From: Nanobdellota archaeon
GTDB lineage: Archaea > Nanobdellota > Nanobdellia > Woesearchaeales > JAHWHD01
Length of the DNA: 19,693 bases
Reading direction: 5' to 3'
Assembly: GCA_034722435.1 (NCBI GenBank)
Contig: JAYENX010000007.1
Location: 1 to 19,693 of the forward strand
The notes under the pieces were generated by a model. The model made no database searches. It was not told the origin of the DNA and saw only the letters and a program-made list of their open reading frames with translations. The first letter of the stretch is position 1. Every line of letters begins with the position of its first letter. Position numbers and translations under genes: made by a program. Below are positions 997 to 19,693 of the stretch, in pieces.

Positions 997-2682
997 TTAA
1001 TCTTGTGATTGCTCTGACACTCATTCCAGTAGTATCCCTTTTGTAACAGGGTCTGCTTTTTCCAGTGTCGCAATAAATTTTACAGCTTGTGTTTTAGTAA
1101 TCCCAGTTAATGCAGTTAGTTCTCCAACCATTTTAGGTGATATTACTATTTGTGACAATCCCCTAACCAAATCTCCAATACTTGCAGTGGACCTAGACAC
1201 CCCTTCTGATAAAAGCCTACCTGCCTCTTGCCCAATAATATCTTTTCCACCAACTATTTCTTTTTCTAGCATTTCAATCCCAGTTCCTTTCTCACCAGAA
1301 AAAATATTACTTATTTTCTTTTCAACTTTAATCCTTTCTGCTGTAGAGATACCACCCTTAGCCCCAAATTCTTGCTTCATCACATCTAAAATATCCATTG
1401 ATGTAGCATACTTTTTATTTATATCCTTAACTTGAGGTACTTTTTTTGATAAATAATCAAGTATATTTTTTGAGGTTCTGTCAATAATTGAATTAAGCTC
1501 ACTTGTTTGTGTTGCTGTTCTGAAATTTTTAATTTTTCTTGTTAGCATTAGCAACCCCTCTGGTGTTGTGTCATCTCATTTGTTAATAGCATCAAAAACA
1601 TCATCCAATCTTTTTGCTTCGATATTGTCTAATGGGGAATATTTTGTATTTAATTTTCCTCCATCCATTGTGACTTTGAAATCATCAAGTGTTTTTGATA
1701 AGTTCTCTAAAATTCCTTTTGTTGTTATTGTTGTTTTTTTACCCTCTTGGCTTATAACTTGAGTTGCTCCATTCTTGAATTTTTTAAATTTCACTGGTAA
1801 CTTATCTACAGCCTCCCTGTATTCTTTCCCCGCATTACTTCTTAATGTTTTTACACCTTTTTGAATATCTTTAGCCTGACTTGTTAAACTAGTTTCACCC
1901 CTCAATCCTTTTAATGCTGCAACAGGGTTTTTTAATATCGAATCTATTACAGCAGTTCCTTTCCCTGAAAACACACCTGCAGTTGATTTCAAAATTCTGC
2001 CACCTGTATCTGCTATTTTACTTATCACTGGTTTAGCAACTGCTCCAACAATAGGTAATGCACCTGCTATACCACCAACTGTTGCAACTTCTTCATTTAA
2101 TTCTCCTTGTCTTGCTGTTTCAACTGCTCCATATCCTAATGCCTCAGTTCCAGCTCTACCGAGTAATCCCCTTGTCTTTGAGAGAGTTTTACCCGCTCCA
2201 GCTACTTTACTTACAGCTGTCGCTCCTTTAGTGATAGCTCCAGCTGGTGCTAAGAAAGTAGCAATATCCCCAACAGCTCCTCCTATTTGTTGACCTGCAC
2301 CTTCTCTTTTTAGTGCTTCTTCAGAAAACACCCTATCTCCAAATATTCTCTCAACATTTTTTTTCCCTATTCTTTTTCCTCTTTCATATGCCTCCCCAAA
2401 AGACTCTTCACCCCCTAATGAGCGAGGTACAGCCATTATTCCTGCTCCTAGTTTTCCAAAAAGAGAACCAACACCTTTTACTAAACCAATTTCAGATTTA
2501 GCCAGTCCAAGCCTTATATCTTCAAACAAACTCTCTCCTTTTACAGATTTATCTATTTCTTTTTTTGAATATTTTTGTTTAAAATCATTGACAACAAATT
2601 GGATATTCTCTTGGCTCTCTTTGTTAGTTGTCATTTGTTTTACAATATTATCTAATTTTTGTCTATCTTGTTCTTGTAACAT
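997..2682 (-). CDS. Internal virion (ejection-type) protein, 561 aa with TGA=Trp
   Basis: Track ORFs 1576..2682 and 1021..1554 are in one frame. Reading through TGA at 1576 and 1021 reaches TAA at 997. Ala/Gly-rich amphipathic central region (FLAPAGAITKGATAVSKVAGAG) and position after the nozzle fit podovirus ejection proteins. Confidence 0.7.
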
Positions 2683-2687
2683 ATTTT

Positions 2688-4757
2688 TTAGTAATTATAT
2701 TTTGTTCTTAAATTTTCTTGACCTGATGATTCACCCCCCATACCACTTAATCCTAATAATTCGTCTGCTGTACCTTTTATTTCTATATATATATTTTCCA
2801 TACCACTCACATCTCTTCCTAGTTTTGCACTTAGCCTTAATTTGTTTTCCAATGACCTTTGTATTGAACGAATTGTAATACCCAACACAGCCTTATTTAC
2901 ATCATTTGTTGATGTTAAATTAGGTAATGTTTTAGAATATATTTCAATATCTTTATCTGTTAGAACTCCAACTTCACCATAAATACCCCTGGCTAAATTG
3001 GGAACGATAGCAGATAATTGTGTCTTTACTATTTGTGACTTCTCTGCATAAGGGTTATTGCTTGTTATAGTTCCTCAAATAGGTCCAGTTGCAAGACTCT
3101 TTATATTGTTTTGCAAGTCTGATACTTGGTATAGTGTGTTTAAACCTTTTTCAAAAGAATTTATGAATGTGTCACTAACATCTTTCCCCCCTGCACTTGC
3201 TTTTAATATCCCTATAAAATCCCCTTTTTTTAGTGCTTCATCTTTTAATTTGTTTAATTCTTGGTCTACCCTACTTCTTAGATTATCTTTTACTGATATA
3301 TCTGTTAGTTTTTGTGTACTACCATCAGCCATTATTGATTTTGCTATTGTAAGTTCCTCACTGTCAGATGCCTCTTCTAAAAAATTCTTATAACTTCCAT
3401 TTGTGAAAGCCCCTCAAGGTTTAAATGAACCACCAGCTTCATCATACACTTTTCTTGCTATATCAATATTTGATTTTCAATCATTAACATCTAAATCTCC
3501 AATTTTATCTTTATGTACAGCAGTATTTATTTGGAAGATTCCATGACTCCCTTCTGGTGCTAGTTTATTATTTTTATCTCCATGAGCATCAATTTTTAGA
3601 TTACTTTCCCCCATGGCTATTGCTAATGCAACATCTGGATTTTCTGGGAACATCTTTATAATATATTCAGCTATCTCTCTTTCTTCAGTTGAAAAATTAT
3701 TTAAAGTTGTTGTTTTAAATAATTCAGTACCAGTAAGACCCTTAGATTCATTAAGTGCTGTTTTTATTTCTATACTCTCTTCAGTAGACATGTAAGGTAA
3801 TGCCAACATTAGTGCTTCACCCATATTCTCTGCTTTATATATTTTATCAATAACATTAGCAGGTGCTTGCTGAAGTCTTGCAACCTCTAAAGCTAGTGTC
3901 CCTATCTTATTCCTCTCTTCTTTTTGTAATGCAATATTTTCATCTTCTCTTTCTAACATAGTAAATGCTAGACTTAATTCTTTATCTTTTCTTCCAGTCT
4001 TTCTTTCAGTTTCTTCATTAAGTCATTCAAGTTGTTGTTTTTGTGCTGTAAGCATATCAGCTCTATCAGCAAATTCATATTCCACAGCTTGATTAACTTG
4101 CTCTAATGCCCCCTGATAATCTCCTTGTGTTGCTAGTAAGTCTGCTGCTGCATATCTTTTATCAATACCAATTCTTCTTGCTCTCCTTGTTGACTCTCCT
4201 TGATAAGCAGATGTAGTTCTCAATCCTCTTCCTTCAGATTCCTCTTGTCTCATTTGGTCATAAAGAGTATCTTCTTCAGCTTGCAATCTTTCTAACTTTC
4301 CAGATGCGGCAGTCATAGCTTCTCTTTTAGTACCAAGACCAGCTTCATCTCCAAGACTTGCTAATAAATCTGCTCTACCTCCTTGTCCTTGCAAAGCAGT
4401 TACAATCCCTTGCTGTCTTTCTCTTTCTAGTGTAGTTACTTCATCTTGTTTGTAAAAGTCTTGTGCTGTTTTGAGTAGATTATTAAAATCTGGAGTCTTT
4501 CTCATTGTTGGCTCTGGTGCTGTTGGTAGTCCTGACATGTCAGGTACATTTCCTAGCTCATTTACATCCATACTATTATTTTGTTTTGAAAAAGCACCGA
4601 TAGTATTCTTACCGATTATTCCATCAACTGTCAAGTTATTTTTTGTTTGGAAATCTCTTACTGCTTTATCTGTTTGCTTTCCAAAAATACCATCAGCAGT
4701 TATTCCCAGCTTTTCTTGATACTGTTTTAGGTCATCACCTGTATATCCTTGTTTCAT
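2688..4757 (-). CDS. Internal virion (ejection-type) protein with N-terminal peptidoglycan-binding domain and internal lytic transglycosylase/lysozyme-like domain, 689 aa with TGA=Trp
   Basis: Four track ORFs join through 4 TGA codons. N-terminus G..GDDLKQYQEKLGITADGIFGKQTDKAVRDFQTKNNLTVDGIIGKNT matches PG_binding_1. ALAIAMGES...SHGIFQIN...WKSNIDIARKVYDEAGGSFKPWGAF matches SLT/lysozyme-like motifs (putative catalytic Glu at 3606-3608). Confidence 0.8.
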
Positions 4758-4758
4758 T

Positions 4759-4914
4759 CTATATATTTTTTATTAGGTATTCTTTTGTAGAGATTAAATC
4801 ATCCCCATAAGTTTCTTTTAATATTTCCTCGACATAGTTTTTTAAGTCGAGATTTTTTTTACTTAACTCTTCCTTGACAGCTTCTCTTATTTCTTTTTTA
4901 ATTTCTTCATTCAT
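4759..4914 (-). CDS. Small hypothetical protein (51 aa)
   Basis: MNEEIKKEIREAVKEELSKK...KNI. The start at 4914 lies 1 nt after the upstream TAA; TAG stop 1 nt before the next ATG. Confidence 0.6.
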   Translation of the reverse strand: MNEEIKKEIREAVKEELSKKNLDLKNYVEEILKETYGDDLISTKEYLIKNI

Positions 4915-4915
4915 A

Positions 4916-6400
4916 TTAATCATCTTCTTTAACTTCATATTCAAATTTTGCACTAGTAATATTCAATCCTCTTTTTGAAGTTATTTTGAACTGTATTTCT
5001 TTGTATTCTGGAAGAGATTGTCCAGAAGTAAATCTCTGAACTTTTCTATCATCTTCTCCATCTACATCAATATCATAAGTTAAAATCTTGGATCAAGAAG
5101 CTACTTCATCATCGTGGCTATCTATATTGCTTGGGTCAATTGTCCTATAATAAACATTTGCTTCCTCTTCACCAAAGTCTGTGAGATTAGTTTTTGTAAA
5201 AGATAGAGTAAAACTCCTTAATTCTTTTGTTACACTTGTGTCTCCAAAGTATGAAGTGATGTATTCAGAATCTACTGTAAAATCAGAATAATCACTATAT
5301 CCATCATGGAGTTGTGCTAGTTTATAATTGTTATCTTTATCTCTATATCCAGCAACTAAAATTCCATGATATTCATTCACTGTGTAGAATTTCCCATCAC
5401 CCATTTCCATATCTCCTGTAACCCCTACAACTGATACTTCTCCTAGATGATTTATTTGATAAATCCCATTATATGCTACTTCTTCCCCTAGTCCTAAATA
5501 CAAGTTAATGCCATCAGTATATGTATTTCATCTTGCCTCTGCACTACCCCAAGCATCATCTATATTTTTTAATCTATTTAAAACATTGAAATATGAGCCA
5601 TTAAATTGTTTAATTCATGTAAACCCTTCGTTCTCTTTACTGTTTTTGCTTTTTATGTTTTGAACTATAACTGTGATTGCTTCATTAAGCACTGCTGCCC
5701 CTATAAAGAACCCATACCCTAAAGATATAGTTTTCTCAAAGGTTGCTGGTTCATTGATAACATCATATAAGAACATTCTTGTTTCTCCAGTAGCTTCCAC
5801 TTCAGCAAAAATAGCCATGAAACCTTTATACTCAATCATCTTTTTATACTCGTGTCCTTGAGGTAAGGTTTTTAATGAAGCACTAAATGTTGTTCCATCT
5901 TGTTTATATAAGTTATATCCTGATATATAATAAAGATTATCTGTTGATGTATTGTATCCCATCAAGTATTCTCCACCTGATGCAAATGATGTATCCACAT
6001 TTGCTGTAAAAACTTTTGTTCCAGTAACAAACTTAAATACATCTCCTGAACCCTCTTCTATACCATAAATACAGTTCTCAACTCCATCATGGTAGAACAA
6101 TGCATCTCCTAAATCTTCTGCAGTATCACGAGACTCAACCCCTGTTGTAATTCCAAAAGAGTTTCCTGTTGTAACTTCAGAGAACATAATATCATAAGTA
6201 TCATCTTCCCCTATAATTCATAAACCATCTCCTTGAATAAATTTTTGTGGATGGTATCCATTAGAAGTTGTAAGTGTCTCCATATCTGCCACAGGGAATA
6301 ATCCTTTTTTGTCAAGTCATTTACTTCTTAATTGAGCAAACCTTGTGTCTCTTTCATCACAAGACATTGATTTTTTAAAATCTATTTCTTTAATTGTCAT
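4916..6400 (-). CDS. Putative tail nozzle / tail tubular protein B-like, 494 aa with TGA=Trp
   Basis: Continuous frame from ATG 6400 through 5 TGA codons to TAA 4916. Aromatic/Gly-rich beta-strand composition; lies directly after the adaptor gene. The function is inferred from synteny. Confidence 0.6.
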
Positions 6401-6402
6401 TG

Positions 6403-7101
6403 TTATTTTGCATTTACTCTCTTTCCTCTCATTATGCTTTTTACATTATCAAGACCTTTAAGATACATCTCTAAAGCTTTTTCTGTCTCGAGTTTCTCCA
6501 TTTTAAGAGTATTTACTCTGTCTTGTTTGTAAATAGAACAATAAGCAAGGGAAGCTTCTATTGATAATAATGTGTGTGCTAGTCTTGGAATTTGTGGCTC
6601 TGCTGTTGTGTCTGTTGAATCGAAAAGTGTAGTTCTTTTTATATCGTAGATTCTTAAACCATCTGTTTTAGTATAGTTGGGAGTAGGATATAATGTTGCT
6701 GAATCACCTTCTATTGAGATATATCTTGGAATACCACCATCATCGTTAAAAAATTCTTGTACCGCACTACTAATTTGTTCCTTTTCAATTAATTTAAGGT
6801 TTGTTCAAACCCCATTTTCATCTTTCACTTCTGCTCTTCTAAAGTGATTGACTTCTGTAATTGGAACAAGATTAACACCATCTGCTAAATTATAATCAGC
6901 TAGGTTATATGGTGCTGTTGTGTTTGTGTCTGCTGGTTTAATCTTTCCAGAGTTCAAGATGATAAAGTTAATAACCTTATCATAGGAATTGTTTAAATTC
7001 CTTGTCTTATCCTTAATAGGATATTTGTTATCATTAGTTGAACACCTGAAATCTATATCTTGTATTAAACCTTGTAGATTTATTGTGTCTGAAAATTGCA
7101 T
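6403..7101 (-). CDS. Head-tail adaptor / tail tubular protein A-like, 232 aa with TGA=Trp
   Basis: Track ORF 6805..7101 extends through one TGA to TAA 6403. Contains G.PRYISIEGDSATLYPTP and EPQIPRLAHTLLSIEAS, patterns typical of podovirus adaptor proteins. Confidence 0.65.
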
Positions 7102-7102
7102 A

Positions 7103-7486
7103 TTATTTAGTGTTTTTTAATGCTTCTAAAAATTCATGCCCTGCTTTTTCTTTCACATCTGTAAATATAGCTACAATCTCTCCATCTTTTATTGTGATTT
7201 CCTCTAGGACTTCAAATTTAGAAGATTGTTCTTTCTTTTCAATCTTTTCTAATAATGGTACTACATCTTTTTTAACTTCATTAAAGTTTTGAGCAGTTTG
7301 TTTTATAGTGTTAGTTAGTTGCTGATTTTCCTCCATCAACTTTTCTGACATATCTTTTAGTTTTTCATTATTATCCTCTATTTTTTTAGTAATCTCTTTT
7401 GCTTTTACCAAATAAGCTTCTTTCTTTTCTATATATGGTTTTAATTTGTCATCTTTTACAATAACTTCTCTTGTATATTCTTTCAT
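7103..7486 (-). CDS. Hypothetical coiled-coil protein (127 aa)
   Basis: Complete ORF with TAA stop, Lys/Glu-rich heptad-like segment, coupled to the adaptor gene by a TAATATG junction. Confidence 0.75.
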   Translation of the reverse strand: MKEYTREVIVKDDKLKPYIEKKEAYLVKAKEITKKIEDNNEKLKDMSEKLMEENQQLTNTIKQTAQNFNEVKKDVVPLLEKIEKKEQSSKFEVLEEITIKDGEIVAIFTDVKEKAGHEFLEALKNTK

Positions 7487-7495
7487 ATGATTTAT

Positions 7496-7654
7496 TTAGT
7501 TAATTTCTCCATTAATTCTTCTCTCTTTTCATTTTTTCATTACCTCTGCTCTTGAGCTACCTGTTATTTTAAACCCATCTTTATCAATCATGTCTATTTT
7601 TTTGATTGGGTTAGGATCAATAGCTATTTGTGTTTTTTTGTTATCTGCTGTCAT
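7496..7654 (-). CDS. Small hypothetical protein (52 aa, one TGA=Trp)
   Basis: MTADNKKTQIAIDPNPIKKIDMIDKDGFKITGSSRAEVMKKWKERINGEIN, TAA stop; fills the gap after the capsid terminator. Confidence 0.55.
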
Positions 7655-7659
7655 GTTAT

Positions 7660-7691
7660 ATATAAATTATACTGGATAATAACCAGTATAA
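7660..7691 (-). terminator. Probable intrinsic terminator after the major capsid gene
   Basis: Perfect 9-bp inverted repeat TTATACTGG (7667-7675) / CCAGTATAA (7683-7691) with a 7-nt loop and a weak T-rich tail on the minus strand, 30 nt after the capsid stop. Confidence 0.6.
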
Positions 7692-7721
7692 ACAACCAAG
7701 TTTTGATTGTTAAACTAGCGA

Positions 7722-8618
7722 TTATGCTACTACTGATAGAATTTCAATTCCTGCATCTGCTCTGTTTACTACAACACCATATTTGATGTCTGATACAACT
7801 AGTTCCCCAAGGTATTCTAATTGGTAAGCTGATTGCATTCTAACTCCTGGTGTTCCATTTGCATCTACAAATGCTCCTGGTAGAGCTGCTGTTGCAAAGT
7901 GGATAGCATCTTTGTGTAGTAATGCTCCTGAAAAATCAGTTCCATCATCTGACACTGAGTTAGATTCAATAACATCTATGTTATAAATTCTTCCAACTCC
8001 TCCATTGTTTTTTGTTCCATCTTGCCCAAAGTCTCCTGAAACAAATCTATCTGAAGTCATTAAGTCTTCTCAAATTTGTTTTGGTGAAAGCACGAATGCT
8101 ACATCTTTGTTATTAAATGAACCTTTAACTGCTTGTTTTAATTTTGAAACAGCTGTTCTCAATGTAACATCTGATAAGTCTGTTCCAGTTGTTCCTACAG
8201 TAAGTGTAAATGAGCTAAATAATGCTGCTAAAGCATTTTCTAAGTCTTCTGCTACTGCATAACCTGCATCTTTCATTCTTCTTTCTTGGAATACATATGA
8301 AGCTTTCACTGCTGCCTTGTCTGTATCTTCAAGAACAAATGATGATTCTTTATGTGTATTAATGTTTAAAGTAATTGCTGTTTCAGTTGGGCTTTGTAAA
8401 GTAACTTGTGTTCCTGCTGCTTTTGTGTTTGTTGCAAAAGCAGTTGTGCTTGGAGTGTAAAGTACATCTCCTCCATTTGCTACCTCATCTGACCTATCTG
8501 TTACTAATCCTGCAATTCTTAAGTTTTCTCTGTAGAAGTCATTTACTGATGCTCCTCAGATTTCTGGTGTAAATACTGCAACGTCTACTGCTGTATAGTG
8601 GTTTGTTCCTAATGCCAT
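7722..8618 (-). CDS. Major capsid protein (P22-coat-like), 298 aa with TGA=Trp
   Basis: MALGTNHYTAVDVAVFTPEIW(TGA)GASV...GDVLYTP...ITLNINTHKESSFVLED...AGYAVAEDLE...GRIYNIDVIESN...SDIKYGV. The FxPE[IL]W and G..G.I.G/N..V..SN motifs fit this family; the gene follows a scaffold gene. Confidence 0.88.
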
Positions 8619-8660
8619 ATTATTTTTTGTTTAAAATTTGTTAATATGACAACACCTATA

Positions 8661-9230
8661 TTATTGCTGTGCTTTTCAAAGAGCCTTTCTTTCAGCATCT
8701 GTAAGACCTGAACTTTGCAGTGTCTTTTTTTGTTTTGCTGTTGAACCTCTACTAACTCCTAATTGGGCTTTTTTATTTTTATCCTCTTGGAGCTTAGTCT
8801 CTTTTCAAGTTTTAAAGTAACTTGATTTGTAAGCTTCGTCTAATGAAGTCCCTTCGATTTTAGCAATCTGAATAACTTTATCTACTGCATCGTCTTCAAA
8901 TTCAGAAGGTATATCTTGTGAATTAAATATTTTTGAGTAGAGTTTTCCTTCTTCCCTTGATAATGCATTTGTAGATTCAGTGTTGTCTTGTTTTGTCTTC
9001 ACTCACTTTCCCTCTACTTTTGTGTATCCTTCTCTTTTAAGAACTCTGTTTTGAATGGCTAACTCTTTCTTAAGGTTGTTACCTTTGTTAACACTTACTT
9101 CCTCTTTTTGTTCTTCCACCTCTCCTTCGATGTCTTCATTTTGTTCCTCTTCATAAGAATCAATATTAAGTTCATCTGTGTTATTTATTTCCTCAAAGTT
9201 TGTTTCTTCGGTATTGTTTAATTTTGTCAT
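8661..9230 (-). CDS. Capsid scaffolding protein, 189 aa with TGA=Trp
   Basis: Two track ORFs join through TGA at 9003, 8805 and 8676 to TAA 8661. Very acidic N-terminus and basic C-terminus; lies directly upstream of the capsid gene. Confidence 0.75.
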
Positions 9231-9286
9231 AGTTATTTTCTAGTTATTTAATTCACTTTTGTCATGGGAGTGATAACCCGTGTTAA

Positions 9287-9511
9287 TTATATTCCTCTTG
9301 ATTTAGTCTTCCTGTCTTTTTTTGGCTCAAACTTATCGTTCAAAGATTTAAACCCTGAAGCAAGTAAGTCTGCTGATAATTTATAATGTGCAGTTTCTTT
9401 TCCAGAGTATACATCTTCTAAAGCTTTTCTATTATTATGCTCTATTAAGAATGATACCAATGATTCCTGCATCTTTTTATCATTATAAAATTCTTTTAGT
9501 TTCTCTTCCAT
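9287..9511 (-). CDS. Small hypothetical protein between portal and scaffold (74 aa)
   Basis: Complete ORF with TAA stop and a TAATATG junction with the portal gene. Confidence 0.7.
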   Translation of the reverse strand: MEEKLKEFYNDKKMQESLVSFLIEHNNRKALEDVYSGKETAHYKLSADLLASGFKSLNDKFEPKKDRKTKSRGI

Positions 9512-9512
9512 A

Positions 9513-11237
9513 TTATTGTTGTCCTTGTGGTAGTGATTGCTCTATAGTTGCCTGTGTTTGTGTTTGATTACCTTGAGTATCAACTGTTCCAGTAGTTGCT
9601 CCACCACTAACACCAAATGTTGCTGATGATATACCTTGTACCTCCATCATTTCATTTATAAGTGTTTGTCTTTGTGGGTCACCTGGTTGTAATAATTGTA
9701 ACTGTGATGCTAGTGCATCTAATTTTCTCTGTCCATTAGTTTGTTCATCTGTTACATTAAAGAATCCTTTTTTTGTTATCTTTTCCATAGTGATGTACTC
9801 TTTTGGAATTGTTAGTTTTCTTTCACTACCTTGTTTTTCTAACTCTTTAGCTTTCATCTCCTCTATGTTAGATAAGTCATCTGCTGTAATTGCACCCTTA
9901 CCATTCATATTACCAATATTACTTAATATTCTTTCCTTGACAAACTCCCCTTTTGCTTTGTTGATAATATCTTCATCAATTAATCTTAACTCTCTTGGTG
10001 AGTATGAGGCTGTTAGCTCATGCTCTTGATTAATCTTTTTAATTAAGTCTGGCATAATTCAATCCACTAGGACTTCTCTTAAATTGAATCCATCATCATC
10101 TCTTCTCTTATTAAAGATTGACCCCGCTTGTGCTGCTTGTAAAGCTTGTGAAGCAAATGGTGTTCCAGCTTTTGCTTCTTCACCAGTTACAGCATTAAAA
10201 GCTGATTGGTCTCTTTGTAAGTTTTCAAATCAATTATCAATTGAAGCTTGGTACTGTACTAGCCCACCTGATGGCATTAAGCTCATTGGTTCAACATACT
10301 CATCATTCTCAAGATAAATCATTTCCCCATTCACAATAGCTTTGGCATCTGGTAGGTTTTGTTTGTTAGTCTTCATCACAACCTTACCTGACAAACTCCT
10401 TGCTTCACTTTCCTCAATCACTGCTTCGTTGATGGCAATTTGTGCTTCAAATGCTTCTTCTCACACACCAAGTCCTCAATCAATACCTTCAACTTCTTTT
10501 CTCTTAAAGAATTTGTATCTTGTTTCTGTTAAGTCTTGTTCATGTAGTAAAAATCATTCTCCATGCACTGTTGCTACAATAATGTTTTTTAATATCATTG
10601 AATCTTCATTCTCTTCATCAAAATACTCTGATGGGAATCAACCTTCAATGTCATAAACTTTTATACCTTCTCAAATCTGTTTTGTCTGTGAGTGTTTTAC
10701 AATCACTTCATCAACTTCATCTCAGCCCTTTCCCCTCATTTCTAATGGTGATAATTCATGCTCTTCAATCTTTATCCCATTTAAAATATCTTTTGGATTT
10801 ACTTTAATAAAATTTCAATTAACAATATCAATCTCGTTAGTCTTCTTCAACATTACATTTCCATACTCGCTCTTTTTTCTTTGGAACTTGTCTATAAATT
10901 CTCCTCAATTATTTTCTTTCATTCATTGCTGAATTTCTTTATTAATAATCATTGAGAATACATAGTCTGAATCAGTTGCTTGATATTCAATATTCTTTCT
11001 ATCTAAATTTTTAGCTCTTCATTCAAGGTCTACGAGTGCATTTCCTACATTCCTAAACCTATATGTGTTACCATCCTCATCCTTACCTCCATCAGTGTAT
11101 TTACTTAATACATAATGTGTTATCTGTGAGATTTTTTCTCCTAGATTAAAATCAATATCTCCAACAATCTTTATAGGATTGTTTTCATATGATTTTATAA
11201 GACCTTCTATGTGTCCTCTTATTTTTGTATCTAACAT
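9513..11237 (-). CDS. Portal protein, 574 aa with TGA=Trp
   Basis: Track ORFs 11019..11237, 10230..10421 and 9513..10055 share a frame, and 11 in-frame TGA codons link them. Size, position after terL, the IDWGLGVWEEAFEAQIAIN segment and the Gln-rich tail fit podovirus portals. Confidence 0.85.
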
Positions 11238-11247
11238 ATATATTTAT

Positions 11248-11276
11248 ATTATAACATTAAATTCCTTTTTTTACAA
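11248..11276 (-). promoter_or_regulatory. Sigma70-type promoter upstream of the portal gene
   Basis: TTGTAA (11276-11271), 17-nt spacer ending ATGT, TATAAT (11253-11248), i.e. an extended TGn -10. It overlaps the terL stop codon. Confidence 0.65.
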
Positions 11277-12771
11277 ACTTTCTAATTTTCATATTATTGT
11301 TGCTAATAAGTCCTGAAGTTACTTCCCCATTATTCACCCCAGTCTTTAATAAATCGAAGTAAGCTCTGAATAAGAATGTATCTCATATATCAGGACTTCT
11401 CCCTAAATATCCCTTCACAGTTTCCTCACTTTTGTTATTACTATCCTTTGGGATTAAGGCTAGCTTTTTATCATCTCCTTGTTGTTTCTGCCTCATAACA
11501 GCCAAGGCTTCTTCAACGATGACTTCCTTTTCTAATGCTGTTGCTGTTATAGATATTTTTCTATCCTCTATCATTTCAGCCAACTTAAATCCAGCTTGTG
11601 ACTTTAAGTTACTGAAGTTTACTACTGTGGTATCTATCCCAGGAACAATTTGTCTTCTGATTGTTTTAGCTTTTAAAGCTGATGAGTTGTTAACGAATGA
11701 CTTACAACCTTTTAAGAAGTCTGATACTCCACCACCCACACCATCATCATCAACAACGACATGACTTCTTGGTATTTTAAATTCTACTTCTAATTCCCTT
11801 GCATCTTGAACTGTTCTGTCAATTCCTTGTTTCTCTTTAACAACTCTTTTAATACTATGTCATCCTTTTCATACATTAAAAACTATTCTATCCCCACCAT
11901 ACCTTGCAACATCTATAGTTAAGTACATATCGTTACTCTCAATTATACTGTTTGTAAACATATCTTCAACTGCATCAAGTGATACAAGCATATTAGTTAC
12001 ATCATCATAGTCTCAATCTCCATCTCTTAGCCTTCTCTTTGTTTTTTCATCTACAATACCATCAAGCTGTGCCTTGTAACTTTTAGCAACATAAGGATTT
12101 TCACTGTATAGTACTGGAACATAAGCCACACTGCTATCAAGCTCCCCTTTTGTATATGGTATATGGAAGAATCTTTTAATCCAAGTTGAGCTGGGGTTAA
12201 AAGTACAGAGTGTTTTAGGTTTTATCTCAATAATGTTTGGATACTTCTCTGGGGATGTTTCATAATCCTTTGGTGGTTGCACCATTATATTTAATTCAGT
12301 ATCAAATAAGTTGTGTCTACCAGTCCTAGTCTTTAATACATCAAAGGCTTGAAAGTGGGTTTCCCCAGCTTCTTCAATAGCCCCCCTTGTATATTCAAGT
12401 GAACCGAACCTTTCGTACTCTGCATCAGTTGGCTTAAATGCAATATCAAGTAAATCAATAGTTGAGCCATTCTTAAACTTAATTATATTATACTTACCAT
12501 CTAGCTTTCAATCACTCTCTGGAATATTATGGTGTTTACATACTTTGTTCCAAGTAACATAGGTTGAAGCCATTAGTCTTTTTAACTCGTTCCTTGCTAT
12601 ATAACCACGATAGCCTGGAAACCTATAGGCATATATTAATTGGTCTTCACATATGAGTCAAGATTTACCTCCACCAGCACCTCCACCAAAGCCCACTATT
12701 TTTGTATGGTCATCATTAAGGTAGCCTCAAGCTATGTCTTGTTTTATTGTTGGTGTTAATGTTATTTCCAT
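11257..12771 (-). CDS. terL: Terminase large subunit, 504 aa with TGA=Trp
   Basis: Walker A GFGGGAGGGKSW, ARNELKRL, Walker B GAIEEAGE, CTFNP, LRDGDWDY, nuclease motifs TIDVARYGGD, VVDDDGVGGGV and GRSPDIWD. Seven in-frame TGA codons. Confidence 0.95.
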
Positions 12772-12777
12772 AATTTA

Positions 12778-13176
12778 TTAATCTTTATCGTTTGGTTTTA
12801 TATAATTAATTGATACAACAGTATTAAGCTCTGCTCCATCTTTACCAGATAGTTCTGTCTTTGTCAAGGCTTTACCATCCATCCTATCTAAGTATGAGTT
12901 CACAGCACCTAGCTTGACAGAATTGTTTTCTTCCATTGAAGTTAGAGCTTTTAATTCAGTAACTACACCATCATAAATTCTCTTATTTTCGATATAATCC
13001 ATTACTAATCTATTACTCTCTAAAGAATCAATTGTCTCTGATATTGATTCTTCCATATTCAAATCATAAATAACTTTTATTTCACCTCTTACAAATTGGT
13101 AATCTTTATTTATTGATAACACAGATAGTCTTTGTTTATCAGATAGTCTTTCTAATTTTTTTTCTAAACTTTCCAT
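12778..13176 (-). CDS. terS: Probable terminase small subunit (132 aa)
   Basis: Directly upstream of terL. C-terminal DRMDGKALTKTELSGKDGAEL pattern is typical of TerS proteins. Confidence 0.7.
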   Translation of the reverse strand: MESLEKKLERLSDKQRLSVLSINKDYQFVRGEIKVIYDLNMEESISETIDSLESNRLVMDYIENKRIYDGVVTELKALTSMEENNSVKLGAVNSYLDRMDGKALTKTELSGKDGAELNTVVSINYIKPNDKD

Positions 13177-13182
13177 AGCTTT

Positions 13183-13211
13183 ATTATAACATAATTAGTA
13201 TACCTTTACAA
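13183..13211 (-). promoter_or_regulatory. Sigma70-type promoter of the morphogenesis operon
   Basis: TTGTAA (13211-13206), 17-nt spacer ending ATGT, TATAAT (13188-13183), 6 nt before the terS ATG. Confidence 0.7.
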
Positions 13212-13227
13212 CACTAAAATCCAAAAG

Positions 13228-13557
13228 GTTACATTTGATTTGAAAAGTCTTTTGAGAAATATACAAATATATATATATTATTACTCTCTATTATATATAA
13301 AAAAAGTGTAACTTTGTAACCTTTTTAGCTTAGACCTTATAAAATAAGGGCTTCCGAGGTTACAAAAAAGTTACAAAAAGGTTACAAAGTTACAGAAAAC
13401 AGCCCTTTTTCACCCATTTTTCGGTTTTTTTACTCTACAACAACACACTTTAAGGTACTTGTAAATATTGAAAAAAGCAAAAAAACCAAAGGTTACAAAA
13501 AGTAATGTAACCTTTTATCCACAGTTTTTCTTGCATTTTGTAACCGACTATGTTACA
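13228..13557. repeat. Probable replication origin: 11 GTTACA/TGTAAC repeats in both orientations, an AT-rich tract and a central hairpin
   Basis: GTTACA at 13228, 13359, 13370, 13381, 13389, 13492, 13552; TGTAAC at 13307, 13315, 13506, 13539. CCTTAT-aaa-ATAAGG at 13335-13349; AT-rich run about 13261-13305; next to the primase-helicase gene. Confidence 0.7.
13515..13523 (+). promoter_or_regulatory. Consensus DnaA box
   Basis: Exact TTATCCACA, 7 nt upstream of the -35 of the rep promoter. Confidence 0.6.
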
Positions 13558-13559
13558 CT
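13531..13559 (+). promoter_or_regulatory. Sigma70-type promoter of the replication gene
   Basis: TTGCAT (13531-13536), 17 nt, TACACT (13554-13559) with an extended TGn element; overlaps two GTTACA repeats. Confidence 0.55.
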
Positions 13560-13661
13560 GATTGTATCAATGAGTTTAAAAATTTTAACGACTAAATTTT
13601 ACTTCTCTAAGTACTCATTGATTAAAAGGCTTAGGGAGGTAGAATTTAGTTTTTATTTATT

Positions 13662-15827
13662 ATGAATCAAAATCAACTTAAAGCATTAGAATATTGAGAT
13701 GAAGGATACTCTGTTTTTCCTTTGAAAATCTCATATAATAATGGAGATAAAAAACTATCATTTGTTAATGGAAGTTGAAAGAAGTATCAAGAAAAAAGAA
13801 TGTCAGAAGAAGAAGTTGAGAGAGCTTTTAGTGATCCAACATTATCTATAGGTATTGTAACTGGTAAGATTTCAAATCTTACTGTTATAGATATAGATAA
13901 GAATGAGCAAGGGAAGTTAAATGCTAACCCATCAGATTTTCCTGATACTCACACAGTTGAGACACAATCAGGTGGAGTCCATTTATACTATAAGTATACT
14001 GACAATATAAAACAAACACAGAATCTTAAAGTCCCAAACATTGGGGAGGTAGATATTAGAAGTGATGGAGGATTTGTAGTAGCACCAAATGGAGATGACA
14101 GATATAATACCAAAGACAACCAGCAACCAATAGATGCACCAGACCACTTATTTCAAACACAGAGTCCATCAGGAACTTTTAAACATACTACCATTGATGA
14201 TGTAATATATGTTTCAGAACACCCAGAGTTACATTCAAGAAATATAACAGTTTTCAACTACTTCTTGACAGAATTAAAACAAACTGCTACTGCTGATGAG
14301 TTCCAAGGTATCTATGAAAACTTAGTCTTCGCTACTAATGATATTCAATCGAGAGAGAAAATAGATAATATCAAAAAGACTTTTGAATCTGCTAAAAAGA
14401 TTATCCTTAAAGATAGAGAGGGTCAATCACAAAATGATATTAAAAAGGAAGCAACTAAAATGTCAGCTTCAAAAGTGAAAGCATACTTTGAGAGAGTAGA
14501 GGAATACTTTGTAAGAGAGAATGATAAGTATGTAGTATATGTTAAAGGAGATAATATAGAAGAGATATATAAATGAAGTGAAAAAGGACTTTATGAAAAA
14601 CAATCAAAGACACAAGTTAAAGCTGATATATCTACTTTCTTGAAAGAGAAGAATCTGTTTCAATATAATAAAGATAATTTTCACAATGAAATATACAACA
14701 GATTAATCACACACTTGTCAACCTTACCTAATAAAAGATTTACTGAGGTATCTGAAAAAATAAATGTACAAAATGGATTCTTTGATTTAGAGACAAGAAC
14801 TTTGATACCACACAGCAAAGATATTTTCACAGTTAACCAACTGAATTTGGCATATTACCCAGAAGAAACTGAGATGCCTATCTTTCAGAAGTATCTTGAT
14901 GTAATCGAGCAAGACTCTGATGGTCTATCTCAAATGTTACAAGAGTTAGCTGGGTATGTATTGCAAGAAGGTAATGCAAGGCAAGTAGTGCACTTTCTCT
15001 ATGGTGCGACTGGAGACAATGGTAAGTCTGTTTTTTGAAAGATTTTAGCAGAATTATTAGGACATAACAATGTATCTTTTGTTAAATTGGATTCATTCAA
15101 GTCCTCCTCTGACTTTGCACTTGAAGGATTAGCAGATAAAAAATTAAATGTTTCAGATGAAACAAATAGGAGTTATATTGATTCACCAGTATACACTGAG
15201 GCAACATCAGAAGGAACAATTAAGTTGAATAAAAAACATGGTGGAATGTATGATTACACAGTAAAAGCAAACTTTATAATCGTGGGTAACTTCTACCCAA
15301 AATTCAAAGATGCAACTGGTATGCAAAGGAGAGTTGTAGTTGTACCATTCAATCATAAGCTCAAACCAGAAGAAAAGATCTTGAATATTGAGAGAAGAAT
15401 AGCAGAGAAAGAATTATCTGCTATCTTTAACTGAGCTTTAAAAGGTATATTGATGGAGAGCAATTCATTCTTCTTATCAGAGCAATCAAAAGCTGGAACA
15501 CTTGAGTTTGAAGCTATCATCAATCCAGTTAAGGATTTTGTGGAGACTTCTTGTATCTATGATGAAGATGCTTGAATTAGTCCAAAAGAATTATATGGGA
15601 ACACAGAGTTTAGGAGTGAAACAGGTTACAACTTATTTATTAAAGAGAACAATAAAAAGCCTTTAGATTTTAGAAATTTCTCATCAGAGTTTAGAACATT
15701 AACTCAACAACATAAACTTCCTGGGTATGTTGAGTGGGGGGTGGTTAAAAAAGTAGATGGAAAAACAATGAGAGGTGTTAAAGGAATTAAATTATTAGCA
15801 GAATACAATGGAGAGGTTAACTTTTAA
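13662..15827 (+). CDS. Bifunctional primase-polymerase (Prim-Pol) fused to a P4/D5-type SF3 helicase, 721 aa with TGA=Trp
   Basis: ALEYWDEGYSVFPL...SWKKYQ, VIDID, TQSGGVHLYY, VDIRSDGGFVVAP (Prim-Pol). GATGDNGKS (Walker A), KLNVSDE (Walker B), NFIIVGN (motif C), MQRR and IFNWALKG (SF3). Six in-frame TGA codons; TAA at 15825. Confidence 0.93.
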
Positions 15828-15833
15828 AATAAT

Positions 15834-16022
15834 ATGAAATTTATAAGAAACTCATATAAGATAATAGACCTTGCCACTGGTAAGAAATCTAAGAGAAAAG
15901 AGCTTTTTGAAGCTATTAATAAAAGAAGAGAATTAAACAACAATGCACAAATCTGAAAGGTAGAAACATACCGAGCAGATGACAGCAGTGCAGATATTAT
16001 AAAAGAAGAATGAATAATGTAA
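15834..16022 (+). CDS. Small hypothetical protein (62 aa, two TGA=Trp)
   Basis: MKFIRNSYKIIDLATGKKSKRKELFEAINKRRELNNNAQIWKVETYRADDSSADIIKEEWIM, TAA stop; starts 6 nt after the helicase stop. Confidence 0.6.
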
Positions 16023-16240
16023 AACAATTCCTCACAGAAGGAATCAAAAGACTCGAAGCTGAAAATGAAAGGAGTAATAAATTCAACACTGAATATATAG
16101 CAGAGACAAGAGTTAAAAATAGGAGAAGAGAAAACACCACAAGAGAGATGAAGTTAAGATACAATTTTCACAAGTGGTCAATAGTAAAAAACAACAAGAG
16201 ATTAGAGGACTATAAGAAGTGATTGTCAACCTGTGGATAA
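16010..16240 (+). CDS. Small basic hypothetical protein (76 aa)
   Basis: The track ORF extends through TGA at 16220 to TAA 16238-16240. Confidence 0.55.
16232..16240 (-). promoter_or_regulatory. Consensus DnaA box
   Basis: TGTGGATAA, the reverse complement of TTATCCACA, 15 nt upstream of a -35 element. Confidence 0.6.
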
Positions 16241-16255
16241 CTCTTACCATCTCGC

Positions 16256-16284
16256 TTGACTTTTTCAACCCCTTGATATACAAT
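16256..16284 (+). promoter_or_regulatory. Sigma70-type promoter
   Basis: TTGACT (16256-16261), 17 nt, TACAAT (16279-16284), in an intergenic gap. Confidence 0.7.
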
Positions 16285-16332
16285 AGAGTTATGAAGGCAA
16301 GGGGAAATATTAAGTCTTTATAATAATATAAT

Positions 16333-16866
16333 ATGGAAAATATAGTTACATTAGCAAAAAAAGGAATAAATTACAAAGCAAAAAAAGAACAACTTAAGAA
16401 AATAGAATTTAAAAAAGTAGATGGCATCTGATATGGTTATGCTACAGATGGATATATTATGTTTGAAGTAAAAGCGGGTAGTATATCGTTTAAAGATAAA
16501 ACCCTGGAAAAGTTTTATATTGATGCCGTTGATATAAAAGATATAAGAATTAAAAAGAATGACATTGTTATTAGTGAAATAGATACAGAAAAAGGTATAT
16601 TACTTCTAATTGTAGAAGATAAAAAATACAATATATCAATAAAAAAAGAATGTCCAGGATTCCCCGACCTTGACGAAATAATAAACACCCGCGAAGATGT
16701 AAAAGAAACAACTTCTAAAAATTCTTTTAATTATGAGTATATAAAAAAAGCGGGTGAAATTCTGACTGATAAAACAAATGAAATAAATATACAATTTTAC
16801 AAAGGAAAACACCCATCAATTATAACGGGAAAAAATGGGGCTGCTTGGTTGATGTCAACAATATAA
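16333..16866 (+). CDS. Shortened DNA sliding clamp (DnaN/beta)-like protein, 177 aa with TGA=Trp
   Basis: Start extends to ATG 16333 through one TGA. YATDGYIM, GFPDLDEII, SFNYEYIKKA, INIQF..KHPSII and AAWLMST parallel the beta-clamp motifs VATDGHRL, GRFPDY..V, GFN..Y..D and AYVVMP, in the same order. Confidence 0.55.
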
Positions 16867-16884
16867 CAAAGTTATGTTATTTAT

Positions 16885-16918
16885 AAAGCATTTAACAATT
16901 TAGAATTAAATGCTTTTT
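16885..16918 (+). terminator. Terminator-like hairpin
   Basis: Perfect 11-bp inverted repeat AAAGCATTTAA (16885-16895) / TTAAATGCTTT (16906-16916) ending in a T run. Confidence 0.55.
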
Positions 16919-16930
16919 AATAATATAAAT

Positions 16931-17293
16931 ATGAATAAAAATATAATACTAACACTAACAGTGGCCGGAGTGGTTGCAATAACATCTCATTTATACATAA
17001 ACAATGAGTTAAAAGAACTAAATAACATTTTAACAATTAAAGAGAATACTATCACAAGCTTAACATCTTACAATAAAGATTTAAGAGATAGCAACAACGA
17101 ATTAAAAGCACAGAATGATGACATTCTGAAAAGCCTTGAATTTGAAATATCAGAAAGCAAAAGATTAAACGAAGAAGCAATACAAAGTGAGGAAGACATG
17201 GTAGCAATGGGGGAGAAATTTATTTCTTTTATTGAAAAAATAAATGTTGATACATTAAGGAGATTAGAAGCAATTGAATATTTAACTAAATAA
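16931..17293 (+). CDS. Hypothetical protein with N-terminal membrane anchor/signal and coiled coil (120 aa)
   Basis: MNKNIILTLTVAGVVAITSHLYI hydrophobic stretch followed by heptad repeats. ATG 16931 is preferred because ATG 16910 lies inside the hairpin. Confidence 0.75.
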   Translation: MNKNIILTLTVAGVVAITSHLYINNELKELNNILTIKENTITSLTSYNKDLRDSNNELKAQNDDILKSLEFEISESKRLNEEAIQSEEDMVAMGEKFISFIEKINVDTLRRLEAIEYLTK

Positions 17294-17294
17294 T

Positions 17295-17537
17295 ATGAAA
17301 CTAATCAAAGATAAAATAGAACACCTATTTAAAGGTGGATACATTGACGAAGTTGATGAAAACAATCATAATTATGTTGTTTATTTAGCTACAGAAGATT
17401 TAAAAGGAGATGGAGAATTATCAGAGGATTACGATGTAACCAAAGAGGAGGTTGAGGAAATTTATAAACCATTCATTGAAGAGTATATCAGGGATATAAA
17501 AGACTATGACGACTCTATATGAAGATTACCTAATTAA
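17295..17537 (+). CDS. Acidic hypothetical protein (80 aa)
   Basis: The track ORF extends through TGA 17520 to TAA 17535-17537; TAATATG junctions on both sides. Confidence 0.7.
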
Positions 17538-17538
17538 T

Positions 17539-17658
17539 ATGAAAAAAACACAAAGCCCTGAGAAGCGAAATGTTCCTAACAAGACTAATGATAACAAAAA
17601 AGTGCTTTTATGTCAATGACTTGAAAGCCATCCACCTTATCTTCTGGCGAGAGGGTAA
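17539..17658 (+). CDS. Possible small hypothetical protein (39 aa)
   Basis: MKKTQSPEKRNVPNKTNDNKKVLLCQWLESHPPYLLARG. The start is coupled by TAATATG, but the 3' half overlaps a structured element. Confidence 0.35.
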
Positions 17659-17742
17659 GATAAGACCGAAACTGTCTTAAAACTAATTATAAAGTCATAT
17701 CTCCAAATAAAAAGATAAAGAGATAGATTAATAAAAAAAATT

Positions 17743-18090
17743 ATGACAGATATTTTTAACGAGGCAAACAAGCCAGAATCAAACTGATTCAAATTTAATA
17801 AAGTAGGTGATTCAGTATCAGGTAAATTAGTAGAAAGAAGACATCAAGAAGGACAAGGAAATTTCCCAGCACAAGAAGTGTATGTTCTTAAAAAAGATGA
17901 TGGAGAAGATGTTAATGTAGGAATTTCAATAAATAAAAGCTATGTAGTCTCAAGAGCAAATAAAGCAGAGGTGGGAGACACATTAGGATTTAAATTTGAA
18001 AAAGAAGTTCCATCAGCAACAAAAGGAAATGCACCAGCTAAATCTATTGAAGTGTATCTTGTAAAAGGTGAAGAAGGAATAGACTTCTAA
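17743..18090 (+). CDS. Probable single-stranded DNA-binding (OB-fold) protein, 115 aa with TGA=Trp
   Basis: MTDIFNEANKPESNWFKFNKVGDSVSGKLVERR...EVYVLKKDDGEDVNVG...GDTLGFKFEKE...EEGIDF. The beta-rich pattern and acidic C-terminus ending in Phe fit an SSB, and it lies in the replication/recombination module. Confidence 0.55.
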
Positions 18091-18180
18091 CATCAACTCC
18101 TTGAATGAGTATAAACTTACCATTTTTATATTATTATAAGACTATTTTGTATATACTTTACAGATTTTGTAAGCAATACT

Positions 18181-18277
18181 TTGATGGTGTTGTGATGAGA
18201 ATATTCAAGGTAAAAGGAATCCCTAATACATTGCAAGTTAAAACCTTGTTCTCATCACAATGCTATTAACTTTAGCA
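18181..18277 (+). ncRNA. Structured intergenic RNA element, copy 1
   Basis: TTGATGGTGTTGTGATGAGAA (18181-18201) pairs with TTCTCATCACAATGCTATTAA (18249-18269): 21 bp with 4 G-U and no mismatch. CAAGGT/ACCTTG extends the stem after a TATT bulge. Confidence 0.6.
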
Positions 18278-18295
18278 GATTAATAATAAAATAAT

Positions 18296-18994
18296 ATGGA
18301 ATTAATAAAAGGAAAAGAATACAAGACAAAAAAAGAGAATAAAATTTACACAGGATATTATACAGGTATTGAAACAACAAACGGCTTTCTTTTCGAGCTT
18401 TCAGATGACCCATCAAAAGGTTGAGATAGGGATACTTTGGTTCCAAAAGATTGAGTATCAATTGGAGATGATAAATACTGATGATTTGATGAAGATGATA
18501 AATTTGAGGAGGTTAGTCGGGAATCCCAACACCCCACTCTTATGACAACAAAGGAATTTACGGGTAGTGTATATGAAGCAATGGGGGGGGGAGAAATTAA
18601 TGAACCACAAGCAGATGTTAGTGTCATTGAAAGGGTAAGGGAAGCTATTAGTAAGTTGGGATTCCAGGGGGGTGAAGAGGAGGAGTTTAATAAATATGTA
18701 AAAAAAGCATGAGAAGAGCCTGAATGCAATCCCCTAATAGAATTTAAAACTAGGAGTGTGTGAAAAGAAGAAATTAATAACAATAAAAATATGACAATAA
18801 AACAAACATTTAAAAAATTAACAATGAGTAAAGCAGATAAAAACCTTATCAAAGCTGGAGTTGTTAATGATGAATTAGAATTAACAAATAGTGGAAGAGA
18901 TTTAGTGGTTGACTTAATGTTCAACAATAAAGATATTAAGGCTGAAATTGCTAAGATGGCAGAGGCTATTGTTAAAGAACAAGAAGACTGTTAA
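18296..18994 (+). CDS. Hypothetical protein, 232 aa with six TGA=Trp
   Basis: Open from ATG 18296 to TAA 18994 with no TAA or TAG, including a TGA-TGA pair (YWWF). The in-frame ATG at 18791 has its own A-rich start context. Confidence 0.65.
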
Positions 18995-18995
18995 G

Positions 18996-19100
18996 ATTGG
19001 TGGTGTTGTCAAGGGAAAGAACTTGAATAAGTTGGATTGTGAGAGCTAACTCCTAAGGTAGAACTCAGTAATCCCCCTTGACAATGCTCCTAATAGCATT
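18996..19100 (+). ncRNA. Structured intergenic RNA element, copy 2
   Basis: ATTGGTGGTGTTGTCAAGGG (18996-19015) pairs with CCCTTGACAATGCTCCTAAT (19075-19094): 19 of 20 pairs including G-U. It encloses hairpins at 19020-19033 and 19034-19074. Confidence 0.6.
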
Positions 19101-19107
19101 AATTATT

Positions 19108-19693
19108 ATGAAATTATACAAATCAAGAGCATCTGGAGTTGGGCATTTATTTACCCAGCCCAAATTAAAGAAGGACAGGGGGGAACTATCCCAGACAGCG
19201 AAGTCAGCATTAGAACACTGACTAAAAGAAAAGATATATAAAAGAAAGTTTGAGTTTTCTAATAAGTATACCGAGAATGGTATCACACAAGAAGATGAGA
19301 ATATAGATTACCTTGAAGCCAATTCAGAATACAAGAACTTAAAGAAGAATGAAGAACACTTTGAAAATGAATGAGTCACAGGGACACCTGACCTCTTGAC
19401 AGATGACAAGGTAATAGATATAAAATCATCTTTTAGTGGGGATACATTCCCTCTCTTTGATACAGAGATAACTAATAAATTATATATCTACCAATTACAA
19501 GCTTATATGTATCTTACTGGAAAGAGAAAAGCAGAGTTGGTCTATGTATTGGGTAACACAGCAGAGGAAGTTATTTTAAAAGAGTTCAACTATTCTGATA
19601 GTGAAGACTATGAGGAATTTAAGAAACAATATATCTATGATGGTATAGATTCAAAATACAGAATCAAAAGATTTGAGGTTGAATACGACCCAG
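19108..19693 (+). CDS. YqaJ/lambda-exonuclease-like PD-(D/E)XK nuclease (partial, runs off right edge)
   Basis: KSRASGVGHLFT...FSNKYTENGITQE...KNEEHFENEWVTGTPDLLTDDKVIDIKSS...YQLQAYMYLTGKRKAELVY; two in-frame TGA codons. Confidence 0.85.

Follow-up and report, generated by a model that had tools for sequence, protein, structure and literature searches.

The window analysed here is the whole of contig C7 (JAYENX010000007.1, 19,693 bp), one of 60 contigs in a 1.3-Mb assembly binned as a Nanobdellota archaeon. It carries the genes of a tailed phage, which form a compact, two-armed map when TGA is treated as a sense codon. One arm runs leftward on the minus strand from position 13176, the other rightward on the plus strand from 13662. 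From 13176 to the left end, the minus arm holds a gene in the small-terminase position, the terminase large subunit (TerL), the portal, a gene in the scaffold position, an HK97-type capsid, virion proteins, a protein with PG_binding_1 and SLT_3 domains, and a collagen-like fibre. The plus arm starts with a Prim-Pol/D5_N/SF3-helicase protein and continues with small genes and a recombination exonuclease. The analysis shows that the contig is written in genetic code 4, with UGA as the ordinary and preferred tryptophan codon and UAA as the working stop. The recoding of TGA to Trp is itself already known, and the window adds a case.

Tryptophan at the TGA codons

Codons were counted over 22 open reading frames (ORFs) with 6008 codons. 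These contain 55 in-frame TGA and 6 TGG codons, close to the hand count of about 57 and about 6 in the original prediction, and no in-frame TAA or TAG; TGA accounts for 90% of the Trp codons. The genes were expected to end in TAA or TAG, and TAA is indeed the stop of every credible gene, with TAG terminating only two doubtful small ORFs. Coding density was derived from greedy, non-overlapping ORFs of at least 60 amino acids. Under table 11 the contig breaks into 37 short and largely false ORFs with a density of 0.68 and a median length of 107 amino acids. With TGA as sense, 23 ORFs reach a density of 0.89, a median of 177 amino acids, and a maximum of 721. Reading TAG as sense gives 0.73, which is no comparable gain, and reading TAA as sense gives 82%, but the ORFs become no longer. 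The rise that had been proposed as a check on the code is therefore obtained in a useful form only with TGA as sense.

The reconstructed proteins match their homologs in length and contain no fusions (portal 574 and 574 residues, major capsid protein 298 and 298, TerL 504 and 507, Prim-Pol protein 721 versus 720–725). The capsid protein of the nearest relative, L004, reads 299 when translated through its stop codon. L004 is IMG/VR contig 3300028030_000184, which is identical to ENA ERZ27262679 k141_409811. Two Logan contigs from independent assemblies of run SRR26901924 (L034 and L060) match the window at 99.9% identity and retain all 12 TGA codons of the overlap, which are therefore not assembly errors.

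The identity of the inserted residue follows from the homologs. Five of the seven TGA columns in TerL are W in 93–120 of 120 full-length homologs, and all six portal columns with at least 70% W in 71 homologs (query aligned) are TGA in the window. Standard-code relatives cover 33 TGA columns. W is the consensus residue in 19 of them and G in not a single one; many of the remaining columns are aromatic or hydrophobic, and others are variable. A Codetta-like log-odds score over 22 well-occupied columns yields +54 bits for W, −20 for F as the next best residue, and −61 for G. L004 can be aligned at 24 TGA codons of the window; it has TGG at 14 of these positions and a Gly codon at none. The Trp content amounts to 1.0% with TGA as Trp and 0.1% from TGG alone, compared with 1.7% in the homologs. 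The TGA codons also behave as ordinary codons. The nucleotide that follows them shows the usual first-position distribution without any special context, and with 0.90 their A-ending share is similar to, or a little higher than, the 0.71–0.86 of other A/G codon pairs. All six motifs in which Trp had been predicted at TGA are present as such (w denotes TGA): FTPEIw in the capsid, GGKSw and DGDwDY in TerL, SwKKYQ in Prim-Pol, IFNwALKG in the helicase, and FKPwGAF in the transglycosylase. Coding density, W columns, and Trp content thus agree with the prediction that the whole window uses TGA as tryptophan (table 4). That statement had been made for the sequence from position 997 onward. It is right about the code and too narrow in scope, since the gene at 3–800 to the left of this point belongs to the same phage but lacks Trp codons.

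Two other explanations of the in-frame TGA codons were weighed against these data, and both are exceedingly improbable. In the first, TGA encodes glycine (table 25) and the contig is a phage of Gracilibacteria or Absconditabacteria. Code-25 phages of these bacteria occur in similar habitats, and like the window they carry dense in-frame TGA genome-wide, matching their recoded host from the candidate phyla radiation (CPR) (Liu et al. 2023, PMC10746230). Their TGA codons stand for Gly, however, whereas the columns of the window are those of Trp. One TGA column of TerL, column 463, does agree with glycine, being G in 77 of 120 homologs. Against this single column stand the strongly negative Gly score and the lack of any Gly consensus in the 33 columns. 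In addition, a Gly reading would lower the Trp content to 0.1% and turn every conserved Trp of portal and capsid into Gly. The original prediction had argued against table 25 from the collagen repeats, whose glycines are never TGA. This is true (16 Gly, all GGN, at residues 55–97 of the gene at 3–800) but weak, and Gly is excluded because of the homolog-column test instead. In the second explanation, the contig is a decaying, nonfunctional phage remnant and its TGA codons are nonsense mutations. The existence of in-frame stops is the one point in its favor. Yet the frames are broken by TGA alone, with 55 TGA and no TAA or TAG, although out-of-frame TAA and TAG are abundant. The TGA codons lie on conserved Trp columns, homolog similarity runs through and past them over the full length of the proteins, and TGG is depleted in parallel with the presence of TGA, all of which speaks against decay.

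The recoding is complete and unbiased, and it includes the earliest replication gene. TGA and TGG occur 36:3 in the structural (late) genes and 18:3 in the replication (early) genes (Fisher p = 0.65). The rightward arm opens with the gene of the Prim-Pol protein, in which codons 12, 39, 305, 459, 591, and 638 are TGA; codon 39 corresponds to a Trp conserved in eight of nine relatives. UGA is already needed at codon 12 of this gene and is as common in early as in late genes, from which we infer that the infected cell has to read UGA as Trp from the outset. The model of a late-gene bias in recoding does not describe the window fragment.

Gene content of the phage fragment

Both contig ends cut through ORFs and the contig has no terminal overlap; therefore, the window is a fragment of a genome. 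It corresponds to roughly half of a small podovirus-like dsDNA phage genome, with about 20 kb lying outside, and several TerL and capsid homologs are found on contigs of about 37–40 kb. TerL, portal, and HK97-type capsid form a collinear module, supported by PHROG matches, the portal fold, and synteny with L004, which assigns the phage to podovirus-like Caudoviricetes. The GC content of the window is 32%. The features are listed in Table 1.

Table 1. Features of the 19,693-bp window, with ORFs read in code 4.
Feature	Position	Strand	Evidence and Trp codons
Collagen-like tail fibre gene, truncated at left end	3..800	-	Pfam Collagen 32.7 bits and tail-fibre PHROGs; 0 Trp codons
561-aa virion or tail protein, unknown family	997..2682	-	2 TGA, 0 TGG; open under table 4 only
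689-aa protein, N-terminal PG_binding_1 and internal SLT_3 lytic transglycosylase	2688..4757	-	Pfam 46.7 and 32.6 bits, both above cut-off; 4 TGA
494-aa structural protein, unknown family	4916..6400	-	5 TGA, 1 TGG
232-aa structural protein	6403..7101	-	1 TGA, column W in 11/16 relatives
127-aa protein	7103..7486	-	0 Trp codons; exact product also in Logan contig L034
Major capsid protein	7722..8618	-	phrog_267, E 7e-24; 2 TGA, both columns W in 24-25 of 25 relatives
189-aa scaffold-position protein	8661..9230	-	3 TGA, all TGG in L004
Portal protein, podovirus type	9513..11237	-	AlphaFold and Foldseek; 12 TGA, 0 TGG
Terminase large subunit (TerL)	11257..12771	-	phrog_2, E 4e-21; more than 1000 homologs; 7 TGA, 2 TGG
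Small-terminase-position gene	12778..13176	-	Upstream of TerL, collinear with L004; 0 Trp codons
Divergent intergenic control region	13177..13661		11 GTTACA/TGTAAC repeats, between packaging and replication genes
Prim-Pol / D5_N / SF3 helicase replication protein	13662..15827	+	Pfam Prim-Pol 68.6, DUF5906 50.2, D5_N 36.5 bits; 6 TGA, 1 TGG
Five small early-region genes	16010..18090 (16010-16240; 16333-16866, weakly RusA-like; 16910-17293; 17295-17537; 17743-18090)	+	4 TGA and 2 TGG in total
232-aa protein, unknown family	18296..18994	+	6 TGA, 0 TGG
Recombination exonuclease, truncated at right end	19078..19692	+	phrog_5715, E 4e-42; 2 TGA; W48 column W in 5/6 relatives

The portal was annotated through its fold. 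No sequence family matches it, and a search of PDB sequences with a profile of the portal family was likewise empty. Its identity was settled by a Foldseek search with the AlphaFold model (pLDDT 72.8), in which the portals of SU10, T7, P-SCSP1u, and A4 are the top matches with E-values down to 3e-11; these T7/SU10-type podoviruses use the standard code and are distant. The catalytic SLT domain of the 689-residue protein contains one TGA, the one within FKPwGAF. The gene at 997..2682 has an identical copy in Logan contig L060 that is called there with TGA as W.

Directly after the capsid gene, at 7667–7691 on the minus strand, lies a 9-bp stem with a T-rich tail behind it. From its sequence, it is a putative bacterial-type intrinsic terminator, at the usual place for highly expressed capsid genes. 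The GTTACA/TGTAAC hexamers at 13177–13661 resemble iterons beside the start of the Prim-Pol gene. Scans for sigma-70 promoters and terminators were uninformative in the AT-rich DNA of the window.

The archaeal bin and the relatives of the phage

The contig is shown to be a binning passenger, foreign to an archaeal bin that uses the standard code. It is the only one of the 60 contigs that is recoded. The other 59 gain no density with TGA as sense, contain TGG at a frequency of 9.4 per 1000 codons, and terminate genes with TGA. The bin encodes the archaeal release factor aRF1, and the bacterial release factor 2 (RF2, prfB) was not found in it. Phage homologs in the other contigs of the bin and a junction with archaeal DNA were also not found. 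Contigs C52, C53, and C42, which are slightly TGA-rich, were considered as further pieces of the phage and dismissed, as they have no homology to the phage family of the window. The only candidate for a spacer link is a single 21-nt match to C28, which falls in a coding region without repeats and was treated as chance. Shine–Dalgarno (SD)-like leaders precede 5% of the window genes versus 28% in the bin. The passenger status is concluded from the private code, the archaeal aRF1, the lack of a related contig and of a spacer, the peptidoglycan-targeting domains, and the scarcity of SD-like leaders.

It is very unlikely that the contig is instead a virus of the DPANN archaeon of its bin or of a related archaeon. 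The contig was binned with this archaeon, its tetranucleotide distance ranks only fourth of 42 contigs and is no extreme outlier, and a related standard-code phage contig (G008:C21) is present in another metagenome-assembled genome (MAG) of the same archaeal order. On the other hand, the archaeal cell stops at TGA with its aRF1, the peptidoglycan-binding and transglycosylase domains argue against an archaeal host, and the recognizable relatives are all bacterial phages; the SD-like leaders, the missing junction, and the missing spacer match weigh in the same direction. Related standard-code contigs occur both as G008:C21 and in a Parcubacteria MAG (L055). Both are phage-only, which shows how readily low-GC contigs bin with the genomes of ultra-small cells. 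Left in place, the contig inflates the archaeal bin with genes of a bacterial virus, and gene inventories of that archaeon should exclude it. In the whole assembly (G000), ARAGORN finds only four tRNA genes in 1.3 Mb rated 94.5% complete; intron-containing or split archaeal tRNAs, or unassembled tRNA regions, may account for the low number.

The code of the relatives was judged at the DNA level on those from IMG/VR, ENA, and Logan. L004 has a capsid that is 83% identical to that of the window, is collinear with the window over the stretch between the terminase genes and the capsid, and uses the standard code with 23 TGG codons. Among these it has one in-frame TGA, in the portal gene (L004:2053-3774, IMGVR_UViG_3300028030_000184). 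The position is shared with the window, its column is W in 61 of 71 homologs, and the gene is conserved downstream of it, so this codon may represent an incipient stage of recoding. L003 (ENA ERZ27262679 k141_273610) has a Prim-Pol protein that is 55% identical and contains 11 TGA versus 10 TGG in six genes of the replication module. L003 and L004/L058 originate from one metagenome assembly (ERZ27262679); no overlap joins their ends, and the resemblance between their intergenic regions does not decide whether they belong together. Should L003 and L004 be parts of one phage, its early genes would be more heavily recoded than its late genes, opposite to the pattern in the literature. The window, its standard-code sister, and the half-recoded relative make up a compact series on the capture of a stop codon.

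Cultured relatives are distant. The capsid is 22–33% identical to those of freshwater cyanopodoviruses (Pf-WMP3, A-4L, LPP-2), which use the standard code, and TerL is 33–36% identical to those of Bacteroidota phages. Look-ups of exact products for an extension of the contig returned nothing but Logan contigs contained within the window. A metagenome scan with Prim-Pol returned distant relatives only, and an IMG/VR scan with the portal returned nothing. The contigs of some relatives bear names that we presume to belong to estuarine projects.

Several relatives show features of their own. In the standard-code contig L002, an RtcB RNA ligase is encoded directly upstream of Prim-Pol (L002:8752-9939), and an array of nine tRNAs extends from 17597 to 18283. 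Its tRNA-Trp(CCA) has, by eye, an A31-C39 mismatch that leaves a 4-bp anticodon stem, a type of tRNA-Trp(CCA) that a 2026 paper ties to the reading of UGA. The capsid gene of some standard-code relatives (L054 at G008:C21:2867-4295, L027, and L028) is interrupted, with the matching parts about 260–500 bp apart, which suggests an intron or another insertion. The close TerL homologs P0102 and P0128 have about 800 residues each; P0102 matches the intein-type Pfam families PF07591 and PF14890 and is predicted to be an intein-containing terminase, and P0128 has no Pfam match on record.

Decoding of UGA and the host

Translation of the phage genes would need a tRNA-Trp that reads UGA, with either a UCA anticodon or a UGA-reading CCA variant, together with little or no RF2 activity. 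Neither ARAGORN, with and without introns allowed, nor Rfam (E up to 1) detected a tRNA gene in the window, and no release factor, release factor 1 (RF1) included, or tryptophanyl-tRNA synthetase (TrpRS) is found among the proteins of its 19.7 kb, with about half of the genome lying outside. Both requirements would be supplied by a host that natively uses UGA for Trp, for example a walled, low-GC bacterium such as a recoded member of the Patescibacteria. A code-4 phage with a native code-4, walled host is the best explanation overall, to which we assign an even chance, and a native code-4 host appears slightly favored, at about evens, over a standard-code host with a phage-borne suppressor.

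The sign of a walled host is the virion protein with PG_binding_1 and SLT_3 domains, both of which exceed their cut-offs; one TGA falls within the SLT domain. Phages of Mollicutes share code 4 with their hosts and have their whole genome in this code, so that a phage suppressor is unneeded. Their hosts, however, lack peptidoglycan, and a Mollicute host is excluded by the peptidoglycan-targeting virion protein. None of the window proteins resembles proteins of cultured Mollicute phages.

Walled bacteria that read UGA as Trp have been published for Eggerthellaceae (PMC13462651) and for Patescibacteria of family JAKLIH01, order UBA6257, class Minisyncoccia (Fakih et al. 2026, PMC13092985). The JAKLIH01 genomes share with the window a low GC content, TAA-dominated stops, TGA as Trp, and an RF2 that was not found. 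They differ in being cellular genomes to which no phage is linked, and the window has no physical or CRISPR link to them. A sample of 400 genomes was taken from the GTDB order of the Parcubacteria MAG that carries the related contig L055, whose capsid is 42% identical to that of the window. The prfB model gave just one, weaker match in some of the 400, which was taken as RF1. Three recoded Patescibacteria genomes belong to this order: G644 (L073, G644:C16), G847 (GCA_027039745.1; L074, G847:C18), and G848 (GCA_947311625.1; L075, G848:C14). Their rpoC genes contain seven to nine in-frame TGA codons, most of them at W columns of family members without TGA in rpoC. G644 has a single, weaker prfB match that was likewise taken as RF1. 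Sampled loci of the three genomes have 28–31% GC, 89% TAA stops, and 5% SD-like leaders, and the window equals this profile with its 32% GC, TAA stops, and 5% SD-like leaders. A text search of the PMC13092985 tables found none of the three accessions, which may be additional members or a separate case. A further genome, G633, looked recoded in rpoC and turned out on checking to use the standard code. The GTDB family of the three also includes five genomes without in-frame TGA in rpoC, one of which (G710) is TGA-enriched in flanking genes. If both codes occur in this family, the existence of sister phages in code 11 would be explained.

These observations raise the possibility that the contig belongs to a phage whose host is a Patescibacteria (CPR) lineage with native decoding of UGA as Trp. 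It would be the first such phage and would share the code of its host, its standard-code sisters (83% capsid identity) would infect sister CPR that have kept the standard code, and L003 and L004 would be intermediates that document the passage of a code change from a host to its viruses. This more specific proposal is tentative and, on balance, rather unlikely. If a code-4 member of the Patescibacteria were the host, a recently discovered recoded CPR lineage would thereby be connected to a virus.

Several findings weigh against a natively recoded host and against Patescibacteria in particular. Searches for a CRISPR or prophage connection to a host came up empty. A TerL relative, a spacer, or a specific similarity was not detected in 12 genomes of the recoded Patescibacteria family, and a DNA search of these genomes with the whole window gave AT-rich noise and a single match to a PG_binding_1 motif. 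A Patescibacteria gene (G760) with 80% nucleotide identity was considered as a host link and discarded, as the match comprises a PG_binding_1 motif with only 50% identity in protein. In CPR and DPANN bins, the contigs from the phage family of the window consist of phage sequence alone and may simply be binning artefacts. Among cultured phages, those nearest in TerL have standard-code Bacteroidota as hosts, which likewise lack SD leaders. Almost all relatives checked at the DNA level use the standard code, with only L003 clearly recoded and L004 carrying its one shared TGA. Several of the standard-code relatives have a tRNA-Trp(CCA) gene within a tRNA array; such a gene could readily give rise to a suppressor and could lie just beyond the contig end, in the half of the genome outside the window.

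The latter points lead to the main competing explanation, an alternatively coded phage of a standard-code host as described by Borges et al. Here the roughly 20 kb outside the window would encode a tRNA-Trp(UCA) and perhaps RF1 or TrpRS, and the phage would switch a cell that stops at UGA, possibly an aquatic Bacteroidota bacterium, to code 4. This is a serious possibility, to which we assign a probability somewhat short of even, as we do to the general case of a phage that supplies a suppressor to a standard-code host. It has a precedent in the code-4 phages of standard-code hosts, among which closely related standard and recoded phages are found (10.1101/2021.08.26.457843). Like the phage of the window, the Agate and Jade phages are tailed, have TGA aligned with Trp in the terminase and other genes, and have close standard-code relatives; a suppressor tRNA is carried by only 35% of the code-4 genomes in that study (10.1101/2021.08.26.457843), and none was detected in the window. 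The standard code of the nearest relatives and their tRNA arrays fit this explanation as well. The single TGA among 23 TGG in L004, at a conserved portal Trp column, and the ratio of 11 to 10 in L003 resemble steps of a transition at the level of the phage, and the affinity of TerL to Bacteroidota phages and the scarcity of SD leaders in the window would both fit a Bacteroidota host. The Bacteroidota promoter motif TAnnTTTG is not enriched in the window. The explanation is opposed by the absence of a late-gene bias and by the first replication gene, which needs UGA decoding at codons 12 and 39. Moreover, TGA is used as a fully established codon, and suppressor tRNA, RF1, and TrpRS were not found in the 19.7 kb. 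The phages of Borges et al. also differ in that they come from gut samples, some are large, and their recoding is reported to be concentrated in structural and lysis genes with replication genes spared. The phage of the window is small and podovirus-like, and its replication genes are recoded as strongly as its structural genes.

With either host, the contig represents a small phage, probably not from the gut, in which UGA encodes Trp completely and without bias across the infection programme, and the proposed role of recoding in late-gene timing does not explain this pattern. A search pattern built from the relatives' tRNA-Trp and set to a UCA anticodon had its only match in an unrelated recoded phage, L046 (IMGVR_UViG_3300038988_000088). 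This phage contig has 28% GC and 24 TGA versus 27 TGG codons, and it carries a tRNA with a UCA anticodon that ARAGORN labels as SeC.

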